A DNA stretch of 64,000 bases from Verrucomicrobiota bacterium (GCA_027619375.1 JAQCFL010000002.1:1663-65662); one strand, 5' to 3'; counted from the first letter of the stretch, positions 21,054 through 56,839 are shown. Translations and numbers: made by a program. Notes: a model not told the origin generated them from the letters alone.

Positions 21054-21563
21054 CTACCTGACGATGCTGCCGCCGGGCCCCGAGGAACTGTTTCCCGGAC
21101 AATCCGTGGAGAGCTCGTTTCGCGGGGCAGGAAGGGTTCCGGAGGGGAGGGGCGCTTGGTGGTCCCGCTCGGAGCGCCTTCGGTGCCCGCCACAAGAGAC
21201 AGGTTCGCCGCAGTGGCGGCAGTCGTAGGCGCTTGTGCCGAGAATCTGGAGGGCGGTGTGTAGGCGATAGCTGCCGAGGAAGCGGGAGGCATCGGGGTGT
21301 TTGGCACAGGAGGTGCGCTCGAGAAGCGGTGCCGAGCAGACCGTACAGCGGGATTGGCCGGCCTCGGCCAAATGGAGAAGGGCGAAGGCGATCCAACCGA
21401 TAAAGACGGTTCCGGCCAGGCCTAGCCAGCGGGGATCGTCCTGGGCCAGGGCGACAATGGCCAAGGTGAAGATTGCGAGAAGGGTGAGAAAACGACCGAC
21501 GTGAAGGAGGGCAACGAGCCTCAAGTGGACAGGGTCGCGATGGGATGGCGGGGTGGGAGCCAT
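21054..21563 (-). CDS. Hypothetical membrane protein with CxxC...CxxC zinc-ribbon-like tail
   Basis: 169 aa with two hydrophobic helices (FLTLLAIFTLAIVALA; LAGTVFIGWIAFALLHL), then CTVC...CRHC. No family was recognised. Confidence 0.5.
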   Translation of the reverse strand: MAPTPPSHRDPVHLRLVALLHVGRFLTLLAIFTLAIVALAQDDPRWLGLAGTVFIGWIAFALLHLAEAGQSRCTVCSAPLLERTSCAKHPDASRFLGSYRLHTALQILGTSAYDCRHCGEPVSCGGHRRRSERDHQAPLPSGTLPAPRNELSTDCPGNSSSGPGGSIVR

Positions 21564-21610: not shown

Positions 21611-21793
21611 TTACTCCGTGGCTGGAGCGGAAAATGTTGGGGCAGGAAGACACTGCGGAACATCGGTCCAGAGGGTCTCGGTGGTATTTAGGCCGAAGGT
21701 TCGTCCGGCGGATTGGAGCAGGCGCCCCGGGGTCTGCAGCAAGGCGCAAGAGTTCAGCAAGGGAATCGCGAGAAGGAGAAGAAGCGCTTTCAT
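21611..21793 (-). CDS. Small putative lipoprotein
   Basis: An internal ATG at 21793 gives MKALLLLLAIPLLNSC (lipobox). 60 aa with no homology recognised. Confidence 0.45.
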   Translation of the reverse strand: MKALLLLLAIPLLNSCALLQTPGRLLQSAGRTFGLNTTETLWTDVPQCLPAPTFSAPATE

Positions 21794-21849
21794 GGCGGGG
21801 AGAATAGGGGGAGGGAGGGCCGCGTCAATGGCGGGCAGGGCCCCACATT

Positions 21850-22452
21850 CTATCCCTGATCGTCGTTCAGGGCGGCGATCCGCTTCAAGCATTCGTCCTT
21901 GCCGGAGGCGAGGACCTGGCCATCCGGGGAGAGGAGGAGGTACTCGGGGACGAAGTCACCGGCGAACTTCTCGAGGTCGGCTCCCTCGAGTTTGGAGGAC
22001 AGGACGGTGAGCCAGGGGAAGCCCTCCTTTTTGGCCCAGCTGAGGGCAGCGGCTTCCTGCTCGTCGTAGCTGACGTGGATCATGGCGACCTTCGTGCTGT
22101 CGGCGAGGTGCTCTTTGTAGGACTCCACCAACTGTGGAGCAGCAGCGCGGCAGGGGCCTCACCAACTGGCCGAGTAGTAAACAAAGAAGGCCTCGGGGGT
22201 GAACTGGAGGTTTGCCGGCTTGAAGACCTCGCCCTCCAAGCGGACCGTATTGCCAAGCAATTTGGCCCCGATGCCCTGGGTTTCACCGGCCGCAGGGGTT
22301 TCGGGAGCGGCTGTCGGCGGGGCGGGATCCGCCGTGGGATCCGAGGGAGTAGTTGGCTCCTCGGCGGACTGGGCGGCCTTTTTCTGCCCGGAATCACAGC
22401 TGGCCAGAAGGCCGAGGACGAGGAGGAGGAAGGGAATGAGGATGGTCTTCAT
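21850..22452 (-). CDS. TlpA/ResA-like thioredoxin-fold lipoprotein with in-frame TGA (candidate selenocysteine) in the redox motif
   Basis: The tail of ORF 22159..23955 and ORF 21850..22131 are in the same frame, separated only by the TGA at 22161-22159. The joined product is MKTILIPFLLLVLGLLASC (lipobox) ...EAFFVYYSASW[TGA]GPCRAAAPQLVESYKEHL..., so the TGA sits at the first Cys of W-C-x-x-C. Confidence 0.6.
22123..22139 (-). promoter_or_regulatory. Candidate bacterial SECIS-like hairpin downstream of the in-frame TGA
   Basis: The minus strand reads CTCCAC-AGTTG-GTGGAG, a 6-bp stem with a 5-nt G/U-containing loop. It starts 19 nt after the TGA, which is roughly the spacing expected for bSECIS elements. 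It is short, so the evidence is weak. Confidence 0.35.
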
Positions 22453-22632
22453 GACTGGGGAAACGCGGTGCGGAAGGGGGAACTGCTTTCGACTGAGAGT
22501 TATGGAGAGCGGGAATATTCCCCGAAGCCCTCCGACGGGGTGGAGCATAGGACGTTTCGGCGAGCTGGCAAAGAGAAGCACGGGCAAATTCGCTCGCGGG
22601 GGACGGGCTGCTTGTGTTGGATGGGGGGAACA

Positions 22633-23895
22633 ATGAAGGAACAACTCTTGCAAAGCCCGGTCTTCCACATGGCGGCCACACAGTTCGAACGGGTCGCGGA
22701 TTTCCTGGAGCTGGGCGAGGAGATCCGGGAGCGCTGCAAGTGGCCGAAGCGCCTGATCACGGTGACCATGCCGGTGCGGATGGATGACGGGCGCACGGAG
22801 GTCTTCTTCGGGCATCGGGTGCAACACCATCTTTCCCGGGGTCCGGTCAAGGGCGGCCTGCGCTATCATCCCTCGGTGGACCTCGGCGAGGTCGCGGCGT
22901 TGGCGATGTGGATGAATTGGAAGTGTGCGCTGATGCGGTTGCCGTACGGGGGGGCGAAGGGAGGCATCGCCTGCAATCCACGCGCGATGAGCGACGGGGA
23001 AAAGGAGCGTCTGACGCGGCGTTTTGCGATGGAAATGCTCCCGTTCATCGGGGAGGAGGTCGATGTGATGGCACCGGACATGGGGACCGACGAGCAGACC
23101 ATGGCGTGGATTGTGGATGTCTATTCGACCTACGCGGGGCACCTCGTTCCGGGCATTGTGACGGGGAAACCATTGGAGCTGCAGGGCTCCGCAGGGCGCA
23201 AGGCGGCGACCGGCCACGGGGTGGCCTTTTTGGCGAGCAGGGCCTTGAACAAGCTGGGCATCCAGGCGCCGGGGGCGACTGCGGTGATTCAAGGCTTTGG
23301 CAACGTGGGCTATTACACGGCGGAAACGATGAGCGGTTACGGAATCAAGGTCAATGGGATCTCCGACGTGACCGGGGCGATCTGGAATGATGGGGGACTG
23401 GAGATCCGGGCGCTGCACAATCATGTGCTGGAGACCGGCGGGGTGGCGGGATTCGGGGAAGCGGAGGCCATTGATCCCGGGGCGCTCCTCATGCAGGAAT
23501 GCGATGTGCTGGTGCCGGCGGCGGTGGAGCGGGTCATCACCAAGGACAATGCATCCGGTTTGCGATGCCGGGTCCTGGCGGAGGCGGCGAACGGACCGAC
23601 CACCCCGGAGGCCGATGCGATCATTGAAGAGCGGGGGGACATCTACCTGATCCCGGATGTTCTTTGTAACGCGGGGGGGGTCACGGTGTCCTACTTTGAG
23701 TGGGTGCAGAATCTGCAACGTTTCCAATGGGATGAGCGGGAGGTGTTGACCAAGTTGGAAACGATGCTGGAGGGGGCTTTCGAACGTTTTCAGCAATACG
23801 TGCGTGCCGAGAAGGTGTCTCATCGGATGGCTGCGTTGTTTCTGGGGATCCAGGAGGTGGCGCGGGTGAAACAAGTGCGGGGGTTGTTTCCATGA
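22633..23895 (+). CDS. gdhA: Glutamate dehydrogenase (Glu/Leu/Phe/Val dehydrogenase family)
   Basis: ATG at 22633 (alternative 22621) inside ORF 22075..23895. Motifs are KGGLRYHP, LPYGGAKGG (catalytic Lys region) and the Rossmann loop QGFGNVG. The upstream part of the ORF is antisense to the thioredoxin-like gene. Confidence 0.9.
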   Translation: MKEQLLQSPVFHMAATQFERVADFLELGEEIRERCKWPKRLITVTMPVRMDDGRTEVFFGHRVQHHLSRGPVKGGLRYHPSVDLGEVAALAMWMNWKCALMRLPYGGAKGGIACNPRAMSDGEKERLTRRFAMEMLPFIGEEVDVMAPDMGTDEQTMAWIVDVYSTYAGHLVPGIVTGKPLELQGSAGRKAATGHGVAFLASRALNKLGIQAPGATAVIQGFGNVGYYTAETMSGYGIKVNGISDVTGAIWNDGGLEIRALHNHVLETGGVAGFGEAEAIDPGALLMQECDVLVPAAVERVITKDNASGLRCRVLAEAANGPTTPEADAIIEERGDIYLIPDVLCNAGGVTVSYFEWVQNLQRFQWDEREVLTKLETMLEGAFERFQQYVRAEKVSHRMAALFLGIQEVARVKQVRGLFP

Positions 23896-24902
23896 GCGAG
23901 GCCATATCGAAACATCCCGGGGGAAGGGAGGTGCGCTTTTCGCGCTTTGGACCACCTGAGGAGGTCCTGGAAATCGGGGAACGGGAATTGCCGGAACCTA
24001 CTTCTGGACAAGCTCTTGTGCGGCTGCTGGCCAGCCCGGTGAATCCGGCCGACCTGAACATCGTGGAAGGCGTCTATGGGGTTCGACCGGAGCTGCCGGC
24101 CGTGCCCGGGATGGAGGGCTGCGGGGAGGTACTGCGCTGTCCCGGCGGGGAATTGGCGGTGGGTTCGCGGGTCATTTTTCTGCGCAAAGGGGGGGCCTGG
24201 GCGGAGGAGATGGTTTTGCCGACGGAGGATCTGATCGCGGTGCCGGAGGCCATCGATCCGGTGCAGGCGGCGATGCTGGGGGTGAATCCGCTGACGGCGC
24301 TGCGGCTCCTGGAGGGCTTTGTCGATCTGAAGCCCGGCGATTGGATCGTCCAGAATGCGGCCAACTCGAATGTGGGGCGTTGTGTCATCCAGCTGGCCCG
24401 GGAGCGGGGCGTATCTACGGTGAACCTCGTACGTCGGGAGAGCCTGCGGGAGGAGCTGCTGGGATTGGGGGCGAGCGTGGTCTTGTTGGATGATGAGGAA
24501 ATGGTGGCCAAGGCCCTGGAGGCCACGGGAGGCCGGCGTCCGGTGCTGGCCTTGAACGCGGTGGGCGGGGACAGCGCCCTGCGCCAGATGGATTTTCTGG
24601 AGCGGCGGGGGAGCCACGTCACCTATGGGGCGATGAGTCGGCAGAGCCTGAAGGTGCCGAACAAGTTCGTGATCTTCAAGGAGCTGACCATCACCGGATT
24701 CTGGATCACCAAGTGGCTGGAGGAGAGTGCCCGGGCGAAAATCGAGGAGTCCTATGTCCTTCTTTCCCAATTCGTCGTGGAGGGAAAGCTGGAGCAGGCG
24801 GTGGATGGAAGCTATCCGCTGGAGGAAGTCCGGGCGGCGTGTCGGCGGGCCGGGGAAGAGGGGCGGGGGGGGAAGGTGATCCTGGTTCCTCGAAGGGGTT
24901 GA
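23892..24902 (+). CDS. MDR-family zinc-independent enoyl reductase / quinone oxidoreductase-like protein
   Basis: 336 aa with the pattern LASPVNPADLNIVEGVYG...PGMEGCGEV and the nucleotide loop VQNAANSNVGRCVIQLA. It resembles 2-enoyl thioester reductase (MECR/Etr1)-type MDRs. There is an ATGA overlap with gdh at 23892-23895. Confidence 0.8.
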   Translation: MSEAISKHPGGREVRFSRFGPPEEVLEIGERELPEPTSGQALVRLLASPVNPADLNIVEGVYGVRPELPAVPGMEGCGEVLRCPGGELAVGSRVIFLRKGGAWAEEMVLPTEDLIAVPEAIDPVQAAMLGVNPLTALRLLEGFVDLKPGDWIVQNAANSNVGRCVIQLARERGVSTVNLVRRESLREELLGLGASVVLLDDEEMVAKALEATGGRRPVLALNAVGGDSALRQMDFLERRGSHVTYGAMSRQSLKVPNKFVIFKELTITGFWITKWLEESARAKIEESYVLLSQFVVEGKLEQAVDGSYPLEEVRAACRRAGEEGRGGKVILVPRRG

Positions 24903-24966: not shown

Positions 24967-26742
24967 TCATGGGGCGTGGGGGCTGGAGCGGAGAGAGAGG
25001 AGGTGCTCGGCGAGGCCGAGGACCTCGGCATCGGTGAGAGTTTCGTGTCCCGGCATGTCCGTGCCGGGGAGGCCGAATTTGGCGATGCGGGCGAGGGTTT
25101 CGCGGAGCGGGGGACCGTTCGGGGCGGGGTTGCTGAAGAGGAAGGGGCCGGCGTTGAGGTTGGCAGGGGGGCGTTGGAAGTGGCGGGCGAGGGGGCCGTC
25201 GCCGCGGCCGGCTTCCCCATGGCAGGCGGCGCAGTGGAGTGCGAAGAGGGTCGCCCCTTCGGCGGGTGGAGGATCGGAGGGGGTCCAGGCGGCGATGGTT
25301 TCCAAACGGGAGGACCACTCTTCGGGAGTGGTGTTGGTGAGGAAGGCGATCAGGTCGGCGCCGCGGTCATCGTCCCAGAGCCGGAGGTAGGGGGGCATGA
25401 CGCTGCCGGGGCTGAGCAATTGGGGATGGAGGAAGTGGAGTTCCATCCATTTTGGGGAGCGGCGCAAACCGACCTGCAGCAGATCCGGTCCCTGTCTGCG
25501 GTTTCCAATCAGGACCGGGGCGTCCTGAAGGATCTTCGGGATGGATCGGCTGGGGCCCCAGAGCAACTCGTCGGCGGTGCCGGGACGCACGTAGCGGGAA
25601 TGGCAATGGATGCAGCCCTCGGAGAGATAGACGGCTTGGCCGCGGGAAACGGGGCTGGCATTGGTTGAGGGGGGCGTGGCGAGGCTCCAAGCGAGGAGCG
25701 CGGACAAGACCACGAGAACGACGGCCGGGTGTCTGCCGGGCAGTCTGAACCGGTGACAGAGCACGGCGGCCGCACCGAGCCAAACCGCGAAGACGAACCA
25801 AGGGGGGACGAGGTGGAGGTTTGCGGCCATGCCGACGCCGAGGGCGGAGCCGATCCAACCGGCGAGGCCGAAGAGTCGCGCGGCGAGGGGGAGCGCTTCG
25901 CGGCTGGTGCGGGCTCCGGAGAGGCAGCCGGGATAGACCACGAGGGCCACGGAATAGAGGGAGACTCCGAGAGGATAGAGCCAACCGGAGAGGGCGGCGA
26001 AGGCCGGTTGACCGACCCACTGCGAGGCGACCGAGAGCAGGGCGAGGGCGGGCAAGAGGACGCGGAGCAGCCAGCCCCGATCGAGAGCCAGGCCGGCGGC
26101 GAGGGCTCCGAAGAAATGGAGGGCGGCATTGCGCCAGAGCAGATCGCTGCCCCAGGTGGCCTTTTTCAGAACGGCGGTGTGTTGGATGATGTAGAAGGCG
26201 GCCGAGTCGAGCCACACGAGGGACAGGAAGAGGAACACGATGAACCAGAACTGGCGGGGGATGGTCGGGGTGGAGGCTGACTTTGGGGGACCGAAATCGT
26301 TGTTCCGCGGGACGGTGGGGACGAACACCGCAGCGAGCCCGGCGAGGAGCACCACGGCGCCGGTCTGCCACTGCCAGGTGGCTTGGAAGAAGGCGGAGAT
26401 ATTGCAGAAGGCATAGGCCAGACCGGTGCCGAGGCCTGCCACCAGTCCGGCGCGTCGGGGGGACACCGTTTGACGCAGGGTGCCGGCGAGGGTGACGAGA
26501 GCGGTGAAACCGCAGACGAGAAAGCCGATCCGCAGGAGGGTGCGAGCCCCGAAGGTTTCCACCAGGCGAGGGGTGAGGACACAGCCGAGGACGCCGCCCA
26601 GGCCCATGGCGGCCATGAGGATCTTCAGGCCGTGGCCGGCATCCTCTCCGAGGGCGCTTCCCTCCAGAAAAGCAAACTGCGCGAAGAGCCGGAAGTAGCC
26701 ATAGATCGCGGTGATGGCGAAGCCGGTGCGGAGCATGTTCAT
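24967..26742 (-). CDS. Fusion protein: MFS-like polytopic membrane domain + CcoO(FixO)-like mono-haem domain + second class-I cytochrome c domain
   Basis: The ATG at 26742 (MNMLRTGFAIT...) overlaps the upstream stop (ATGA). About 11 hydrophobic helices include the MFS-motif-A-like LTPRLVETFGARTLLRIG. Next comes CIHCHSRYVRP...GPDL...W..HF.HP...SPGSVMPPY, the CcoO signature as I recall it. The C-terminus has LFALHCAACHGEAGRGDG...GTDMP. The 157 upstream codons of ORF 24967..27213 were rejected as Arg/Pro-rich. Confidence 0.8.
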   Translation of the reverse strand: MNMLRTGFAITAIYGYFRLFAQFAFLEGSALGEDAGHGLKILMAAMGLGGVLGCVLTPRLVETFGARTLLRIGFLVCGFTALVTLAGTLRQTVSPRRAGLVAGLGTGLAYAFCNISAFFQATWQWQTGAVVLLAGLAAVFVPTVPRNNDFGPPKSASTPTIPRQFWFIVFLFLSLVWLDSAAFYIIQHTAVLKKATWGSDLLWRNAALHFFGALAAGLALDRGWLLRVLLPALALLSVASQWVGQPAFAALSGWLYPLGVSLYSVALVVYPGCLSGARTSREALPLAARLFGLAGWIGSALGVGMAANLHLVPPWFVFAVWLGAAAVLCHRFRLPGRHPAVVLVVLSALLAWSLATPPSTNASPVSRGQAVYLSEGCIHCHSRYVRPGTADELLWGPSRSIPKILQDAPVLIGNRRQGPDLLQVGLRRSPKWMELHFLHPQLLSPGSVMPPYLRLWDDDRGADLIAFLTNTTPEEWSSRLETIAAWTPSDPPPAEGATLFALHCAACHGEAGRGDGPLARHFQRPPANLNAGPFLFSNPAPNGPPLRETLARIAKFGLPGTDMPGHETLTDAEVLGLAEHLLSLRSSPHAP

Positions 26743-27161
26743 CCCTGTAAAACCCTTTCCAACAGTTGTTTGTGCAATCCGATGGCCTGGAGGCCGCCCA
26801 CCACGAGGTCGGTTGCGGCGACCGGGAGCCAGGCCGTCTCGAGGCTGCCGCGGGCCACGCTGAGGGCCACGAAAAGGGCCACGGCGCAGCGGGCCACGGC
26901 GGTGATGAGCCATTGCATGCGCCAGGCGGCGACCGCGTTGGCGTCGCGGGGGAGGCCGCCCACCAGAAAGTAGGAAAGACCGACGGAGAAGACGAAGACG
27001 CCGACCCACGAGAGGAAGATGTTGGGGCCTGCCGGTTCGCTGATTCCCATGAGGCGCAAGGTTTGCAGGGGGAGGAACAGGAGGAGGAGTCCGGTGAGGG
27101 AGTCCATCAGGCCGACGAGGCGCTGGGCCGGAAGAAGAAGTCTGGGAAACTTGTCTTGCAT
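26739..27161 (-). CDS. 140-aa four-helix membrane protein of unknown function
   Basis: Its ATG directly abuts the TAA of the upstream gene (27159-27164). There are four hydrophobic segments and no motif was recognised. Confidence 0.65.
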   Translation of the reverse strand: MQDKFPRLLLPAQRLVGLMDSLTGLLLLFLPLQTLRLMGISEPAGPNIFLSWVGVFVFSVGLSYFLVGGLPRDANAVAAWRMQWLITAVARCAVALFVALSVARGSLETAWLPVAATDLVVGGLQAIGLHKQLLERVLQG

Positions 27162-28424
27162 TTAATTGTTCGCTGCGGATTGAGGTTCGTGTGGCTTGAG
27201 GAGTCCGAGCCACCAGCGGGCGCTGACGATCAGGAGGACGAGGCCGCAGAGGAGGCGCAGGGTGTAGAGGCTCGTCTTGGTTGGGTTGGGGTGAAGGATC
27301 CAGGCGGGGTCGGCGGCTTCAAAGAGGCCGGCGCTTGCCATGAGCACGACGTAGCCGAGGGTGGCGCCGTTCCACCACCAGAAGCCCGTCGCCAAGGGCC
27401 GCGTCCCGCCGGTGAGGACCACGGCGAGGAAGAGCAGGAAGGTGCTGGTGAACCCGGCCATGGCGAAGTGGGCGTGCGCGACGAGGACGTTGGTGAATTT
27501 GGCGGCATCGAGCAGCCCCGGCAGGAAGGTGAGCCAGCCGGTGAGGATGAGCAGGGCGAGCCAGGCCAGGGAGGCGGAGAGCCAGCGGCGTTCCAGAGGG
27601 CTCCAGGAATAGCGTCGATAGAAGATCGGGAGGAGGGCGATCCAGGCGAGAAGGAGGCCGAGGCCAATCCATTGGGAGGGTTCGCGGTGACTGATCACGG
27701 TCCGCTCGAGGAAGGGAACGGCGGCGAGTTGGAGGCCGAAGACGATCCAATAGAGGGACTCTCGCCCCGCGCCTTCGGCCCTCCGCCGACCGAGGGAGCG
27801 GGGCACGAGGAGGAGCAGGAAGACGACGGACAAGCTGGAGCCGAGGAGGCTGGCCCCGGTCGGGCCGCCGCTCTCGGGGTTGACGGGAGGATAGACCTCC
27901 GGGCGGGCGGCGAGGGCGAGGAGCACCGGCACGGCGCCGAGGGCCAGGAGGCCAAGGAGATGCGCCTTGCCGCGGCGGCCGCGAAACCAGGCGGCGGCGA
28001 GGACGCCCCAAAGCAGGACCATGGCCCCGAGGAAGAAGCCGAGGCTGCGCCCGGACCAGTCCAGAAAGATCTTGCCGCTGGTCTGGCCATCCAGCCAGGC
28101 GAGGGAACCCGCCAGCAGGGCGGCGGACCAGGCCCAGATTGCCGTGAGGCCCCAGCTGGTGAGGCCGATGGCATCCACCCCGTAAAGCCGGAACAGCCAG
28201 GCGACCAAGGGGAGGCTGGTCCAGCCGAAGAGGTGCAGGTTCAGGTGCAGGGGCATCCAGCGTCCATAGGTCCAGGTGCCCAGCAGCCCGCCGCCGGTTG
28301 GGGCGACGAGGAGCAGGGCCAGGAGGAAACCCACGGCATTTGCGGCGACCAGCCAGAAGAAGGCATGCCTCAGGGCGGTCCTGATGGAAGCGTTCTCGGG
28401 CGGGAAATTGGGGGAACTCAACAT
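27162..28424 (-). CDS. cbb3 oxidase subunit I (CcoN)/NorB-like haem-copper-oxidase-superfamily membrane protein lacking recognisable CuB/FeB histidine ligands
   Basis: 420 aa, ~12 TM. GRWMPLHLNLHLFGW resembles the CcoN helix-II GRLRPLHTNAVIFAF. FTNVLVAHAHFAMAGF carries the helix-X HxH haem ligand pair. LYTLRLLCGLVLL resembles the CcoN C-terminus FYVIRLLGG. Only one His (H246) lies between residues ~160 and 316, where one His plus an HH pair is expected. These comparisons are from memory of family consensus. Confidence 0.7.
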   Translation of the reverse strand: MLSSPNFPPENASIRTALRHAFFWLVAANAVGFLLALLLVAPTGGGLLGTWTYGRWMPLHLNLHLFGWTSLPLVAWLFRLYGVDAIGLTSWGLTAIWAWSAALLAGSLAWLDGQTSGKIFLDWSGRSLGFFLGAMVLLWGVLAAAWFRGRRGKAHLLGLLALGAVPVLLALAARPEVYPPVNPESGGPTGASLLGSSLSVVFLLLLVPRSLGRRRAEGAGRESLYWIVFGLQLAAVPFLERTVISHREPSQWIGLGLLLAWIALLPIFYRRYSWSPLERRWLSASLAWLALLILTGWLTFLPGLLDAAKFTNVLVAHAHFAMAGFTSTFLLFLAVVLTGGTRPLATGFWWWNGATLGYVVLMASAGLFEAADPAWILHPNPTKTSLYTLRLLCGLVLLIVSARWWLGLLKPHEPQSAANN

Positions 28425-54968: not shown

Positions 54969-55058
54969 GGGCGGGCCTGAATAGATGGCCTGTCCCTTGT
55001 GCTGGGGTCCCCGCGTTCGATTGCAATACGGACGGGCAGAGTAGACACTCCCTTCCGG

Positions 55059-55811
55059 ATGGACGAGTCAACGAAGACAAAGGCCCTGCGACTGCGCAAG
55101 GAGGATGCCGTGCAGCAGATTCTGGCGAAATCGCGCTCCACCAAGGAGGTCGCGGAGGAGTTCGGGATCTCCCACCAGGCTGTCTCGCTCTGGGTTCAAC
55201 GCTACAAGAAGTCCGGCACCCTCCAGGTCGAACGGATGGGACGCAAAAAGATTCCCCCGTTCACCCTAGCGGAGAGACGCCAATTCTCCGCCATGGTGAT
55301 CGCCCTCTACAAAAAGATGGGCTATCGTCTCGGAGACAATGTTCCGGAAGTCGATCAGATCGAGAACGCAACCCTGATCGATTTTCTCAAGCAAATTTCC
55401 GATCGACCGCCTTCTGCACACCAGGCGCACAAGCTCTTGAAAGAGCTCAACCTGCCCCCACACAGTAATCCCTTCACCCGGCTCGACGAGGATGATCAAC
55501 GGGCGAAAACGTTCTATCCTCTTCATGATCCGTTCAAAGCGCCGTCCCCCGAATCCACTGCCGCATCTGGCACGGACCAGCCCGGCACCCGGGACCATCT
55601 CGACGAGGCTGCTCCGAGCACTTCGGAGGAATACGACCAATGGATCAAGGACTCCAAGAGAATCCTCAAGGAGCGAGGGATCGACTACGACCCGGTTCAG
55701 ATGCGCGTCCAAAAGCCCACAAGTCCCGGCGGACGGGGCGGCAAGCAGACCAAGGGGGCCTCACATACTCCTCCGAAACGCCGCAAGAAAAAGGCTCGAA
55801 AACGCCGCTGA
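55059..55811 (+). CDS. Helix-turn-helix protein (transposase-N-terminal-like HTH) with basic C-terminal tail
   Basis: ATG at 55059. KSRSTKEVAEEFGISHQAVSLWVQRYKKSG is an IS630/IS3-type HTH. The C-terminus is PPKRRKKKARKRR. No catalytic transposase domain is present. Confidence 0.6.
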   Translation: MDESTKTKALRLRKEDAVQQILAKSRSTKEVAEEFGISHQAVSLWVQRYKKSGTLQVERMGRKKIPPFTLAERRQFSAMVIALYKKMGYRLGDNVPEVDQIENATLIDFLKQISDRPPSAHQAHKLLKELNLPPHSNPFTRLDEDDQRAKTFYPLHDPFKAPSPESTAASGTDQPGTRDHLDEAAPSTSEEYDQWIKDSKRILKERGIDYDPVQMRVQKPTSPGGRGGKQTKGASHTPPKRRKKKARKRR

Positions 55812-56208: not shown

Positions 56209-56625
56209 TTAAGAGGAAAAGGGATTGATCACGCGGACTCCGGCATAGAGCTGGCCGTGGTTGAGGTCTTCGGAGTAGACGGTGGCACATCCGAGCTCGA
56301 CGGCGGCGGCGATGATGGCGCCGTCCCAGTAGGAGATCTGATGGCGCTTCCTGATCGCAAGGGCGGACCAAAAGAGGGCGTCCGTCAGAGCGAGGACGGG
56401 ATAGGTTTCGAGGGACTCGAGAATCCGGATGACCGTGTCTTCGGGGAGTCGGAGCTTCGCGGTCGCGTTGACGTAGAACTCGGCGAGGACTTGGACGGAA
56501 AGTGCGCCTCCGTCCTTGGACAGGAGTCCTCTGGCGATGGTGCGCTTCTCCCGTTCTGCTGGCGCACCGGAGGCGGCGTAGAGAAGGATGTTTGTATCCA
56601 GGAAGAACTCAGCGTGCATGGGCAT
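56209..56625 (-). CDS. vapC: PIN-domain toxin VapC
   Basis: An internal ATG at 56625 gives MPMHAEFFLDTNILLYA. The acidic PIN residues are D in FLDTN, E in LAEFY, D in LTDAL and D in YSEDLN. Confidence 0.75.
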   Translation of the reverse strand: MPMHAEFFLDTNILLYAASGAPAEREKRTIARGLLSKDGGALSVQVLAEFYVNATAKLRLPEDTVIRILESLETYPVLALTDALFWSALAIRKRHQISYWDGAIIAAAVELGCATVYSEDLNHGQLYAGVRVINPFSS

Positions 56626-56839
56626 CGTCGCGCTTGAGGCGATCCCCGGCGGCAAACTCGGGCAGTTCATCCATTGCCGCGAAGAGCGTCTTGGCTCGGT
56701 CGCGGGCGGTCATCTGGGGTCCGGCCAGAACGTGTTCCAAGCCCTGCAGGACCAGCTCACGCAGGGTGGTGCGGCGTTCGGCAGCGAGGACTTTGGCCCG
56801 GTGCACGAGATCGTCGGGCAGCTCAATAGTGGTTTTCAT
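56609..56839 (-). CDS. vapB: Type II antitoxin (VapB-like)
   Basis: An internal ATG at 56839 gives MKTTIELPDDLVHRAKVLAAERRTTLRELVLQGLEHVL (76 aa). It overlaps the vapC start by 17 nt. Confidence 0.6.
   Translation of the reverse strand: MKTTIELPDDLVHRAKVLAAERRTTLRELVLQGLEHVLAGPQMTARDRAKTLFAAMDELPEFAAGDRLKRDDAHAR

Follow-up and report, generated by a model that had tools for sequence, protein, structure and literature searches.

We studied a 64 kb stretch of DNA from a Verrucomicrobiota bacterium (referred to as the window) and, within it, a minus-strand gene at positions 21850-22452 that is predicted to encode a thioredoxin-like lipoprotein and whose reading frame contains an in-frame TGA. 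The results presented below make it very probable that this TGA specifies selenocysteine (Sec) in the active site of the protein, which is predicted to be exported, in other words, that this is a genuine selenoprotein gene. This reading, which had been proposed in a first-pass annotation of the sequence, is supported by homologues having Cys at the position concerned, by relatives that share the TGA, by a downstream hairpin with the properties of a bacterial Sec insertion sequence (bSECIS), by the presence of the same TGA in several assemblies, and by a tRNA-Sec gene located next to the copy of the gene in Roseibacillus persicicus.

One reading frame interrupted by TGA at a redox active site

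Translation confirmed that two open reading frames (ORFs) lie in one frame, which runs on the minus strand from 22452 to 21850 and is broken only by the in-frame TGA at 22161-22159. The features of the gene are as follows.

21850..22452, minus strand: proposed recoded coding sequence of 200 sense codons, including UGA as Sec98, followed by TAG; both halves match one thioredoxin-like domain
22452-22450, minus strand: start codon ATG, from translation
22396..22452, minus strand: predicted lipoprotein signal peptide (residues 1-18) and lipobox Cys19 (L-A-S-C, residues 16-19) with Asp at +2, from translation; confidence of the AlphaFold2 (AF2) model is low here, as expected for a signal peptide, and Cys19 would be lipidated
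22279..22395, minus strand: flexible linker rich in Pro, Ala and Thr (residues 20-58), with a predicted local distance difference test score (pLDDT) of about 47-53 and no predicted secondary structure
21853..22278, minus strand: thioredoxin-fold domain of the tryparedoxin/ResA/TlpA-like type (residues 59-200), from Pfam, PDB phmmer, AF2 and Foldseek
22150..22164, minus strand: proposed UxxC active site, W97-U98-G99-P100-C101, at the N-terminal end of helix alpha-1, aligned with the near-invariant SASWCGPC of homologues; helix 100-116 starts directly after it
22159..22161, minus strand: UGA, the proposed Sec codon; TGA in 24 distinct family sequences and TGY (TGC or TGT) in 106 distinct Cys forms
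22122..22140, minus strand: bSECIS-like hairpin g-CUCCAC-AGUUG-GUGGAG-u, inside the codons for A-P-Q-L-V-E, with the loop beginning 25 nt past the UGA
21850..21852, minus strand: true stop TAG; in family members the stop is at the corresponding place, 94-109 codons past the TGA

The first 19 residues, MKTILIPFLLLVLGLLASC, constitute a hydrophobic signal with the L-A-S-C lipobox at its end, and the translated context of the interruption is ...EAFFVYYSASW-TGA-GPCRAAAPQLVESYKEHL.... Same-frame ORF pairs that are split by a TGA, with 60 or more open codons to either side of it, occur at 123 places in the window, which has a G+C content of 63%, so that such a pair is not unusual by itself. Among these places, however, coding-like codon composition and homology on both sides are combined with a redox motif at the target TGA only. 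When the window was scanned for TGA codons that have a redox motif and flanks resembling coding sequence, no second selenoprotein gene came to light, the target alone qualifying.

Long spurious antisense ORFs are present over the glutamate dehydrogenase (GDH) gene (window 22075-23955), one of 598 aa on the minus strand and one of 606 aa on the plus strand that starts from an upstream GTG. The minus-strand ORF enters the frame of the target gene, and this frame is consequently open for 612 codons upstream of the TGA. These antisense ORFs are an artefact of the high G+C content and lie outside the gene proper.

The TGA codon is conserved among diverged relatives

A search of a large protein collection showed that Cys occupies the TGA column in all full-length homologues (13/13), within the nearly invariant motif SASWCGPC. 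In agreement with the first-pass annotation, the stop codon thus exactly replaces the nucleophilic Cys. The two fragments of the window gene were not returned by this search, even though the N-terminal one is in that collection, which indicates that the short split products of TGA-containing relatives are effectively invisible there; a DNA scan was therefore used. Scanning species-representative genomes with a protein pattern based on the joined protein identified no relative. The DNA scan of species-representative genomes for the degenerate motif S-A-S-W-TGA-G-P-C-R returned 120 loci, 16 of which belong to the same subfamily as the target: they have the TGA in the same codon, hidden Markov model E-values of 1e-40 to 1e-67 and 94-108 open codons after the TGA, and their labels are mostly Verrucomicrobiales, Roseibacillus, Oceaniferula or Akkermansiaceae. 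Ten further TGA forms, together with 110 Cys forms, were obtained from a metagenome scan that allowed TGA, TGC or TGT. The question had been raised whether homologues would be genuinely split at this position; instead, TGA occupies precisely this codon in 23 other distinct subfamily sequences, most of them from Verrucomicrobiales, and the frame beyond it is conserved.

The TGA forms are 34-48% identical to the window protein in an alignment of the shared domain, and up to 57% identical in the best local BLAST alignment. Despite this divergence, the pattern GPCR..APQLVE.Y...IH.S.D...WA...FPW is preserved after the TGA, and the frame, which stays open for a conserved length of about 100 codons (94-109), ends at the equivalent position. 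Several TGA-form genes terminate in TGA, which is hence also a normal stop in genes of this family. The gene order TsaE, 169-aa membrane protein, target gene, GDH is common to the window, the metagenome-assembled Roseibacillus sp. ANT-131 (L123) and metagenome contig L195. The GDH proteins of the latter two are 77-78% identical to that of the window and both loci carry the TGA, indicating that the syntenic orthologue also has it.

One additional TGA form, L188 (on a TARA_B110000881 scaffold), is 22% identical, and its similarity is lost about 25 codons past the TGA as if it were frameshifted; either the sequence contains an error or the copy is decaying.

These data also bear on whether the TGA in the window could be a sequencing or assembly error, the true codon being TGC or TGT. 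Most of the assemblies that carry it (ENA ERZ23495043, Logan SRR2027816 and GCA_027622125.1) probably stem from one sample, which leaves some room for an error. Three separately assembled contigs nevertheless agree at the TGA and differ at other places, L001 having two mismatches and L002 a 12-nt gap, the truncated product has two NCBI protein accessions, and many unrelated data sets contain relatives with the same TGA. An error at this position is therefore scarcely credible.

A hairpin with bSECIS properties is under selection at the RNA level

The hairpin CTCCAC-AGTTG-GTGGAG that had been noticed downstream of the TGA is located at 22140..22122, its CTCCAC arm beginning after 19 nt and its loop after 25 nt. 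According to the bSECIS consensus, the apical loop is 3-9 nt, the upper stem 4-16 bp, the distance from UGA to loop 16-37 nt and the minimum free energy (MFE) at most -7.5 kcal/mol, with a G among the first two loop positions that is usually followed by G or U (PMC13188914). The window element has a 5-nt loop, AGUUG, in which the G is second and followed by U, six Watson-Crick pairs plus a closing G-U, a spacing of 25 nt and a folding energy of -9.8 kcal/mol. These values are all within the published limits and the hairpin thus conforms to the bSECIS constraints.

The hairpin is moreover specific to the TGA forms, as it occurs in every one of them and most Cys forms lack it. The equivalent 19-nt segment has a mean folding energy of -8.3 kcal/mol in 24 distinct Sec forms (range -13.2 to -3.0) versus -1.65 kcal/mol in 106 distinct Cys forms (Mann-Whitney p = 8e-14); for the 30 Cys forms with the similar peptide P-x-[LFV]-[VA] the mean is -2.1 kcal/mol. 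Base pairing was analyzed in an alignment of 27 TGA forms (24 distinct). Standard pairs fill 92.4% of the cells of the 6-bp helix, compared to 39-60% after shifting the 3' partners by 1-3 columns, and double compensatory changes are found in three of the six pairs (C-G to U-A, U-A to G-C and A-U to G-C). The observed covariation was not reached in any of 500 shuffles.

Codon usage provides a third line of evidence. Codons +7 to +13 are nearly frozen in the Sec forms (GCT 17/19, CCA 16/23, CAG 24/24, GTG 22/22, GAG 16/19, AAA 13/14), and the Leu codon in the hairpin is always TTR (19/19) and never CTN. By contrast, codons -3, -2, +2 and +4 to +6 of the same sequences are near maximal entropy, and at the hairpin positions every synonymous codon occurs among the Cys forms; thus, a Cys homologue with the identical PQLVE peptide encodes it as CCG CAA CTT GTG GAA. 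Because the constraint is confined to the hairpin it cannot be explained by shared ancestry. Together, the covariation, the energy gap between Sec and Cys forms and the frozen synonymous sites strongly indicate selection on the RNA that is separable from conservation of the protein.

Other roles and extensions of the structure were considered. A long-range lower stem was suggested by the MFE fold of an 81-nt segment, in which the UGA region pairs with downstream sequence (z = -1.9), but this candidate was dropped as the pairing is not conserved in relatives. An intrinsic terminator was rejected because a U-run does not follow the hairpin. A separate bias concerns the Gly codon at +1 (window 22156-22158), for which the 24 Sec forms use GGC or GGA exclusively, whereas GGT and GGG are commonest in Cys forms; the bias may reflect an influence of local context on the recoding of UGA or on termination.

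An alternative explanation for the interruption is that a Cys-type TlpA-like gene recently acquired a TGY-to-TGA nonsense mutation and that the downstream part of this pseudogene is not translated. Such a mutation requires one substitution from TGC or TGT, Cys forms exist in the same subfamily, the NCBI annotation consists only of a 97-aa hypothetical protein, and Sec machinery was not found in the window. However, a pseudogene is improbable given that TGA is present in the same codon of 23 other, highly diverged distinct sequences including the syntenic orthologue, that the 102 downstream codons are intact and conserved, and that the window gene has the hairpin and the codon choices specific to Sec forms.

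Both halves are required for one thioredoxin fold

When the stop was replaced by Cys, the resulting protein scored above the Pfam cut-offs for Thioredoxin_8 (3.8e-9), Thioredoxin and AhpC-TSA, and just under that for Redoxin (26.5 bits, cut-off 26.6). This, together with the LASC lipobox and the linker seen in the translation, bears out the layout described earlier of a lipoprotein signal, a Pro/Ala linker and a thioredoxin fold. In the AF2 model, pLDDT exceeds 90 from about residue 61 to 190 and is 83 over the last ten residues. The predicted elements include E70-73/E76-79, E88-94, H100-116, E122-128 and H133-143, and the N-terminal beta-hairpin and central insertion typical of the TlpA-like superfamily are present; P169, in the cis-Pro loop, is invariant among homologues. 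Since strand 88-94 is encoded ahead of the TGA, and the active-site helix 100-116 and three core strands beyond it, one fold requires both halves.

These results speak against the possibility that the TGA is a genuine stop separating two products, a 97-residue lipoprotein and possibly a C-terminal fragment initiated at TTG 22131. Gene callers did give exactly these two ORFs and TGA is the usual stop in this genome, but neither piece is a complete thioredoxin fold, conservation is continuous across the TGA in all family members, and the selection on RNA structure 25 nt downstream would be left without a role. We consider two separate products at least as improbable as a pseudogene, and if anything slightly more so.

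The protein is a member of the TlpA-like superfamily (cd02966). Its best match among PDB sequences by phmmer is tryparedoxin (3s9f, 2e-12). In Foldseek, tryparedoxins ranked first, ahead of ResA, StoA and Bacteroides thiol-disulfide oxidoreductases, with a probability of 1.0 for tryparedoxin, ResA and StoA. NCBIfam models scored far below their cut-offs (DsbE 30.4 bits versus 123, ResA 20.4 versus 170, and thioredoxin also below), indicating a member of the superfamily that is not an orthologue of TlpA, ResA or CcmG. An orthologue of TlpA, ResA or DsbE/CcmG was rejected on these scores and also because maturation genes were not found among the scanned window ORFs. The earlier designation as TlpA-like is thus correct at the superfamily level but does not hold for closer kinship, the closest solved relatives being tryparedoxins and ResA/StoA.

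Many relatives, such as L090 4194-4598 (minus strand), P0003 and P0004, have a signal peptide and an SHD1-like domain (RTWTSADGSK..., a weak match to Pfam PF03983) instead of the lipobox and linker. Judged from the sequences, the putative export signals are of the lipobox type in the window protein and of type I in relatives. The type I signals and SHD1-like domains of the relatives make the family look extracytoplasmic.

Sec machinery, and observations that weigh against recoding

TGA forms of the gene are present in three assemblies of the cultured species R. persicicus, including the complete chromosome CP151838.1. A divergently oriented tRNA-Sec gene is located 229 nt upstream of the start of the R. 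persicicus gene; ARAGORN assigned it the anticodon TCA, and it scored 59.6 bits against Rfam RF01852 (gathering threshold 47). At least the tRNA component of Sec decoding is therefore present in the lineage. tblastn searches with E. coli SelA, SelB and SelD detected no such genes near family members (in the window, in 245 fetched loci, and in 20 kb around the R. persicicus gene). A SelD match in L057 (Marinobacter) and SelB-like matches were set aside because they were located in chance-match loci.

Besides Sec insertion, the UGA might be read through by a near-cognate Trp, Cys or Arg tRNA, or by means of a locally reassigned code, the hairpin then slowing termination. Cases in which a downstream structure stimulates read-through of a stop codon exist in bacteria, and Sec machinery has so far not been seen for the window organism, of which 64 kb were covered. 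Yet the residue concerned is the catalytic Cys of CxxC, whose chemistry is preserved by Cys or Sec only, the hairpin has the G-U loop and the spacing of a bSECIS, tRNA-Sec adjoins the R. persicicus copy, and most genes here end in TGA. Reassignment of the codon was excluded since TGA ends 32 of 52 roughly predicted window genes with a stop codon, making it the commonest ordinary stop. We therefore regard read-through by a tRNA other than tRNA-Sec as very improbable.

Several observations weigh against the conclusion that the TGA encodes Sec. As the first-pass annotation had stated, the 64 kb window is devoid of selA, selB, selC and selD: it yielded no tRNA, no Rfam match and no tblastn match to SelA, SelB or SelD, and Pfam analysis of 50 window ORFs revealed no family characteristic of these three proteins. 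The best BLAST matches of the window protein are mostly Sec forms, with four Cys forms (P0001-P0004) interspersed; the presence of these inside the subfamily implies that Sec is not obligatory for function, and among these, L127 retains a weaker hairpin of -6.3 kcal/mol. The hairpin is short, and its conservation is in part that of the protein, since it lies within the peptide APQLVE, which is conserved. No SECIS family in Rfam matched it, either with the whole window at gathering threshold or with 21800-22500 under permissive settings; bSECIS elements are diverse, however, which renders this result uninformative. Finally, most assemblies carrying the TGA of the window itself probably come from one sample, and the Sec reading rests on computation for every member of the subfamily.

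Proposed mechanism

On the reading that the TGA encodes Sec, the UGA at 22161-22159 would be recoded during translation, with Sec being inserted instead of termination taking place. The 6-7 bp hairpin, with its AGUUG loop 25 nt downstream, would act as the bSECIS and recruit the SelB-GTP-Sec-tRNA(Sec) complex to the ribosome by binding SelB. The 200-residue product would be sent across the inner membrane by its signal peptide and lipobox and tethered there through a lipidated Cys19, on the flexible Pro/Ala linker. Its U98-x-x-C101 pair is expected to cycle between the selenol/thiol and selenenylsulfide states. By analogy with tryparedoxin, ResA and TlpA, the protein may be a reductase of periplasmic client proteins, electrons then flowing towards the clients, and it could be recharged by a membrane electron carrier of the CcdA/DsbD type.

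Neighboring genes and additional TGA-containing families

Beginning 56 nt past the stop of the target gene, the minus strand contains a 60-residue ORF with its own lipobox, LNSC (window 21611-21793), which is followed by a 169-residue ORF (21054-21563, minus strand) without a Pfam match. At the corresponding place in Roseibacillus sp. ANT-131, tblastn matched parts of the latter weakly (E about 1e-5). These two ORFs may be co-transcribed partners of the target gene. At 2.8 kb from the target, a 748-codon ORF (24967-27213, minus strand) has FixO (mono-haem subunit of cbb3 oxidase) and cytochrome c domains. TlpA-like proteins often serve in oxidase or cytochrome maturation. No CcdA/DsbD, Sco, ccm, res or cytochrome c maturation genes were detected among the window ORFs scanned with Pfam. 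Further away, a transposase-type helix-turn-helix ORF (54981-55811, plus strand) is located near a PIN-domain ORF (56209-56709, minus strand); the pair may be a mobile-element remnant or a toxin-antitoxin pair.

The scans also returned a second TGA-containing TlpA-like family, mostly in metagenome-assembled genomes (MAGs) of Planctomycetota (L012, L026, L028, L033, L043, L046, L047, L053 and about 20 more loci). Its sequences read ...EFWATW-TGA-GPCRGAWPHL... followed by 220-280 open codons, and match the profile of the target family with E-values of 1e-10 to 1e-20. These loci probably form a further UxxC selenoprotein family whose members have a long C-terminal extension. A further set of TGA forms, ...LNFWA[ST]W-TGA-GPCR[AE]EFPHL..., was found in MAGs labelled Acidobacteriota, Clostridia, Armatimonadota, Bacteroidales and Actinomycetota (L020, L035, L044, L034, L058 and L120); in several of these the frame is open for 300-670 codons ahead of the TGA, pointing to a large N-terminal domain.

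Annotation and significance

In NCBI, the gene is represented only by its N-terminal fragment, which ends at the TGA (MDA0765275.1 and MDA1005269.1 for the window; WP_189572715.1, WP_308987054.1 and GHC63572.1 for R. persicicus). These fragments of 97 (window) and 117 residues (R. persicicus) are named 'hypothetical protein' or 'SLA1 homology domain-containing protein', and the selenoprotein is not annotated in GenBank, RefSeq or UniRef. The string 'Verrucomicrobi' is absent from the text of the published selenoprotein surveys that were searched for it, and literature searches for the source records and for Roseibacillus combined with selenocysteine gave nothing. We tentatively put forward, as a proposal that may well prove too strong, that the gene represents a distinct, undescribed selenoprotein subfamily, largely of Verrucomicrobiales, consisting of exported tryparedoxin-like UxxC proteins that are anchored by a lipid or an SHD1-like domain, have a minimal bSECIS in the codons for A-P-Q-L-V-E, are encoded next to selC in R. 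persicicus and are systematically truncated by annotation pipelines.

If these readings are correct, the cultured R. persicicus would provide an experimental system for a periplasmic Sec-based thiol-disulfide reductase. Exported UxxC selenoproteins have often been predicted and rarely studied, and a cultured host in which the gene lies beside selC makes the prediction testable. The annotation would be corrected from truncated hypothetical proteins to a full thioredoxin-fold selenoprotein, and Sec decoding would be in use in a Verrucomicrobiales clade that the text-searched surveys do not mention. In addition, the gene would offer an example of a compact and tightly constrained bSECIS, with a 6-bp stem and a 5-nt loop in a conserved peptide, for which matched Sec and Cys forms are at hand to study the constraints on RNA versus protein. 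Current understanding is not overturned by these findings.

Comparison with known systems

Like the SECIS elements of E. coli fdhF and fdnG, the target element is a hairpin inside the coding sequence just 3' of the UGA with G-U in its apical loop, and a U bulged in the stem, as in the E. coli SECIS, is seen in a few family members. It differs from the E. coli elements in being much shorter (6-7 bp) and in having neither a conserved lower stem, nor primary-sequence similarity, nor an Rfam match.

With respect to the protein, the tryparedoxins of Leishmania major (3s9f) and Crithidia fasciculata (1qk8) share with the target the position of WCxxC at the start of helix alpha-1 and the N-terminal beta-hairpin, and their motif ...YFSASWCPPCR..TPQLVEFY resembles that of the target. 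Tryparedoxins, however, are cytosolic Cys proteins of kinetoplastids that contain WCPPC and are reduced by trypanothione, whereas the target is bacterial, predicted to be exported, and would contain WUGPC. TlpA, ResA, StoA and CcmG (DsbE) are, as the target is predicted to be, extracytoplasmic membrane-tethered proteins with a thioredoxin fold and a WCxxC motif, and ResA and StoA are among its structural matches; they differ in having a Cys rather than the proposed Sec as nucleophile, and the NCBIfam matches of the target to DsbE and ResA are weak.

The closest parallels are the UxxC Sec proteins of thioredoxin fold, which have been catalogued since 2005 in the Sargasso Sea and Global Ocean Sampling surveys (PMC1088965, PMC2398784). 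The published groups include a protein named 'thiol-disulfide isomerase-like' (cd02966, TlpA-like, UxxC) as well as sizeable 'Trx-like' and 'Prx-like' groups (PMC1088965; PMC2398784; PMC13188914, a review of 2026). They have in common with the target the thioredoxin fold, Sec for the first Cys of CxxC, a bSECIS in the coding sequence immediately downstream, and abundant Cys homologues. Compared at the level of membership and domains, the target clade would be set apart from these groups by its largely Verrucomicrobiales membership, by Thioredoxin_8 (tryparedoxin/nucleoredoxin type) as best Pfam match, and by the lipoprotein signal or SHD1-like domain. This kind of selenoprotein is thus already known, and the target is a further member of it.

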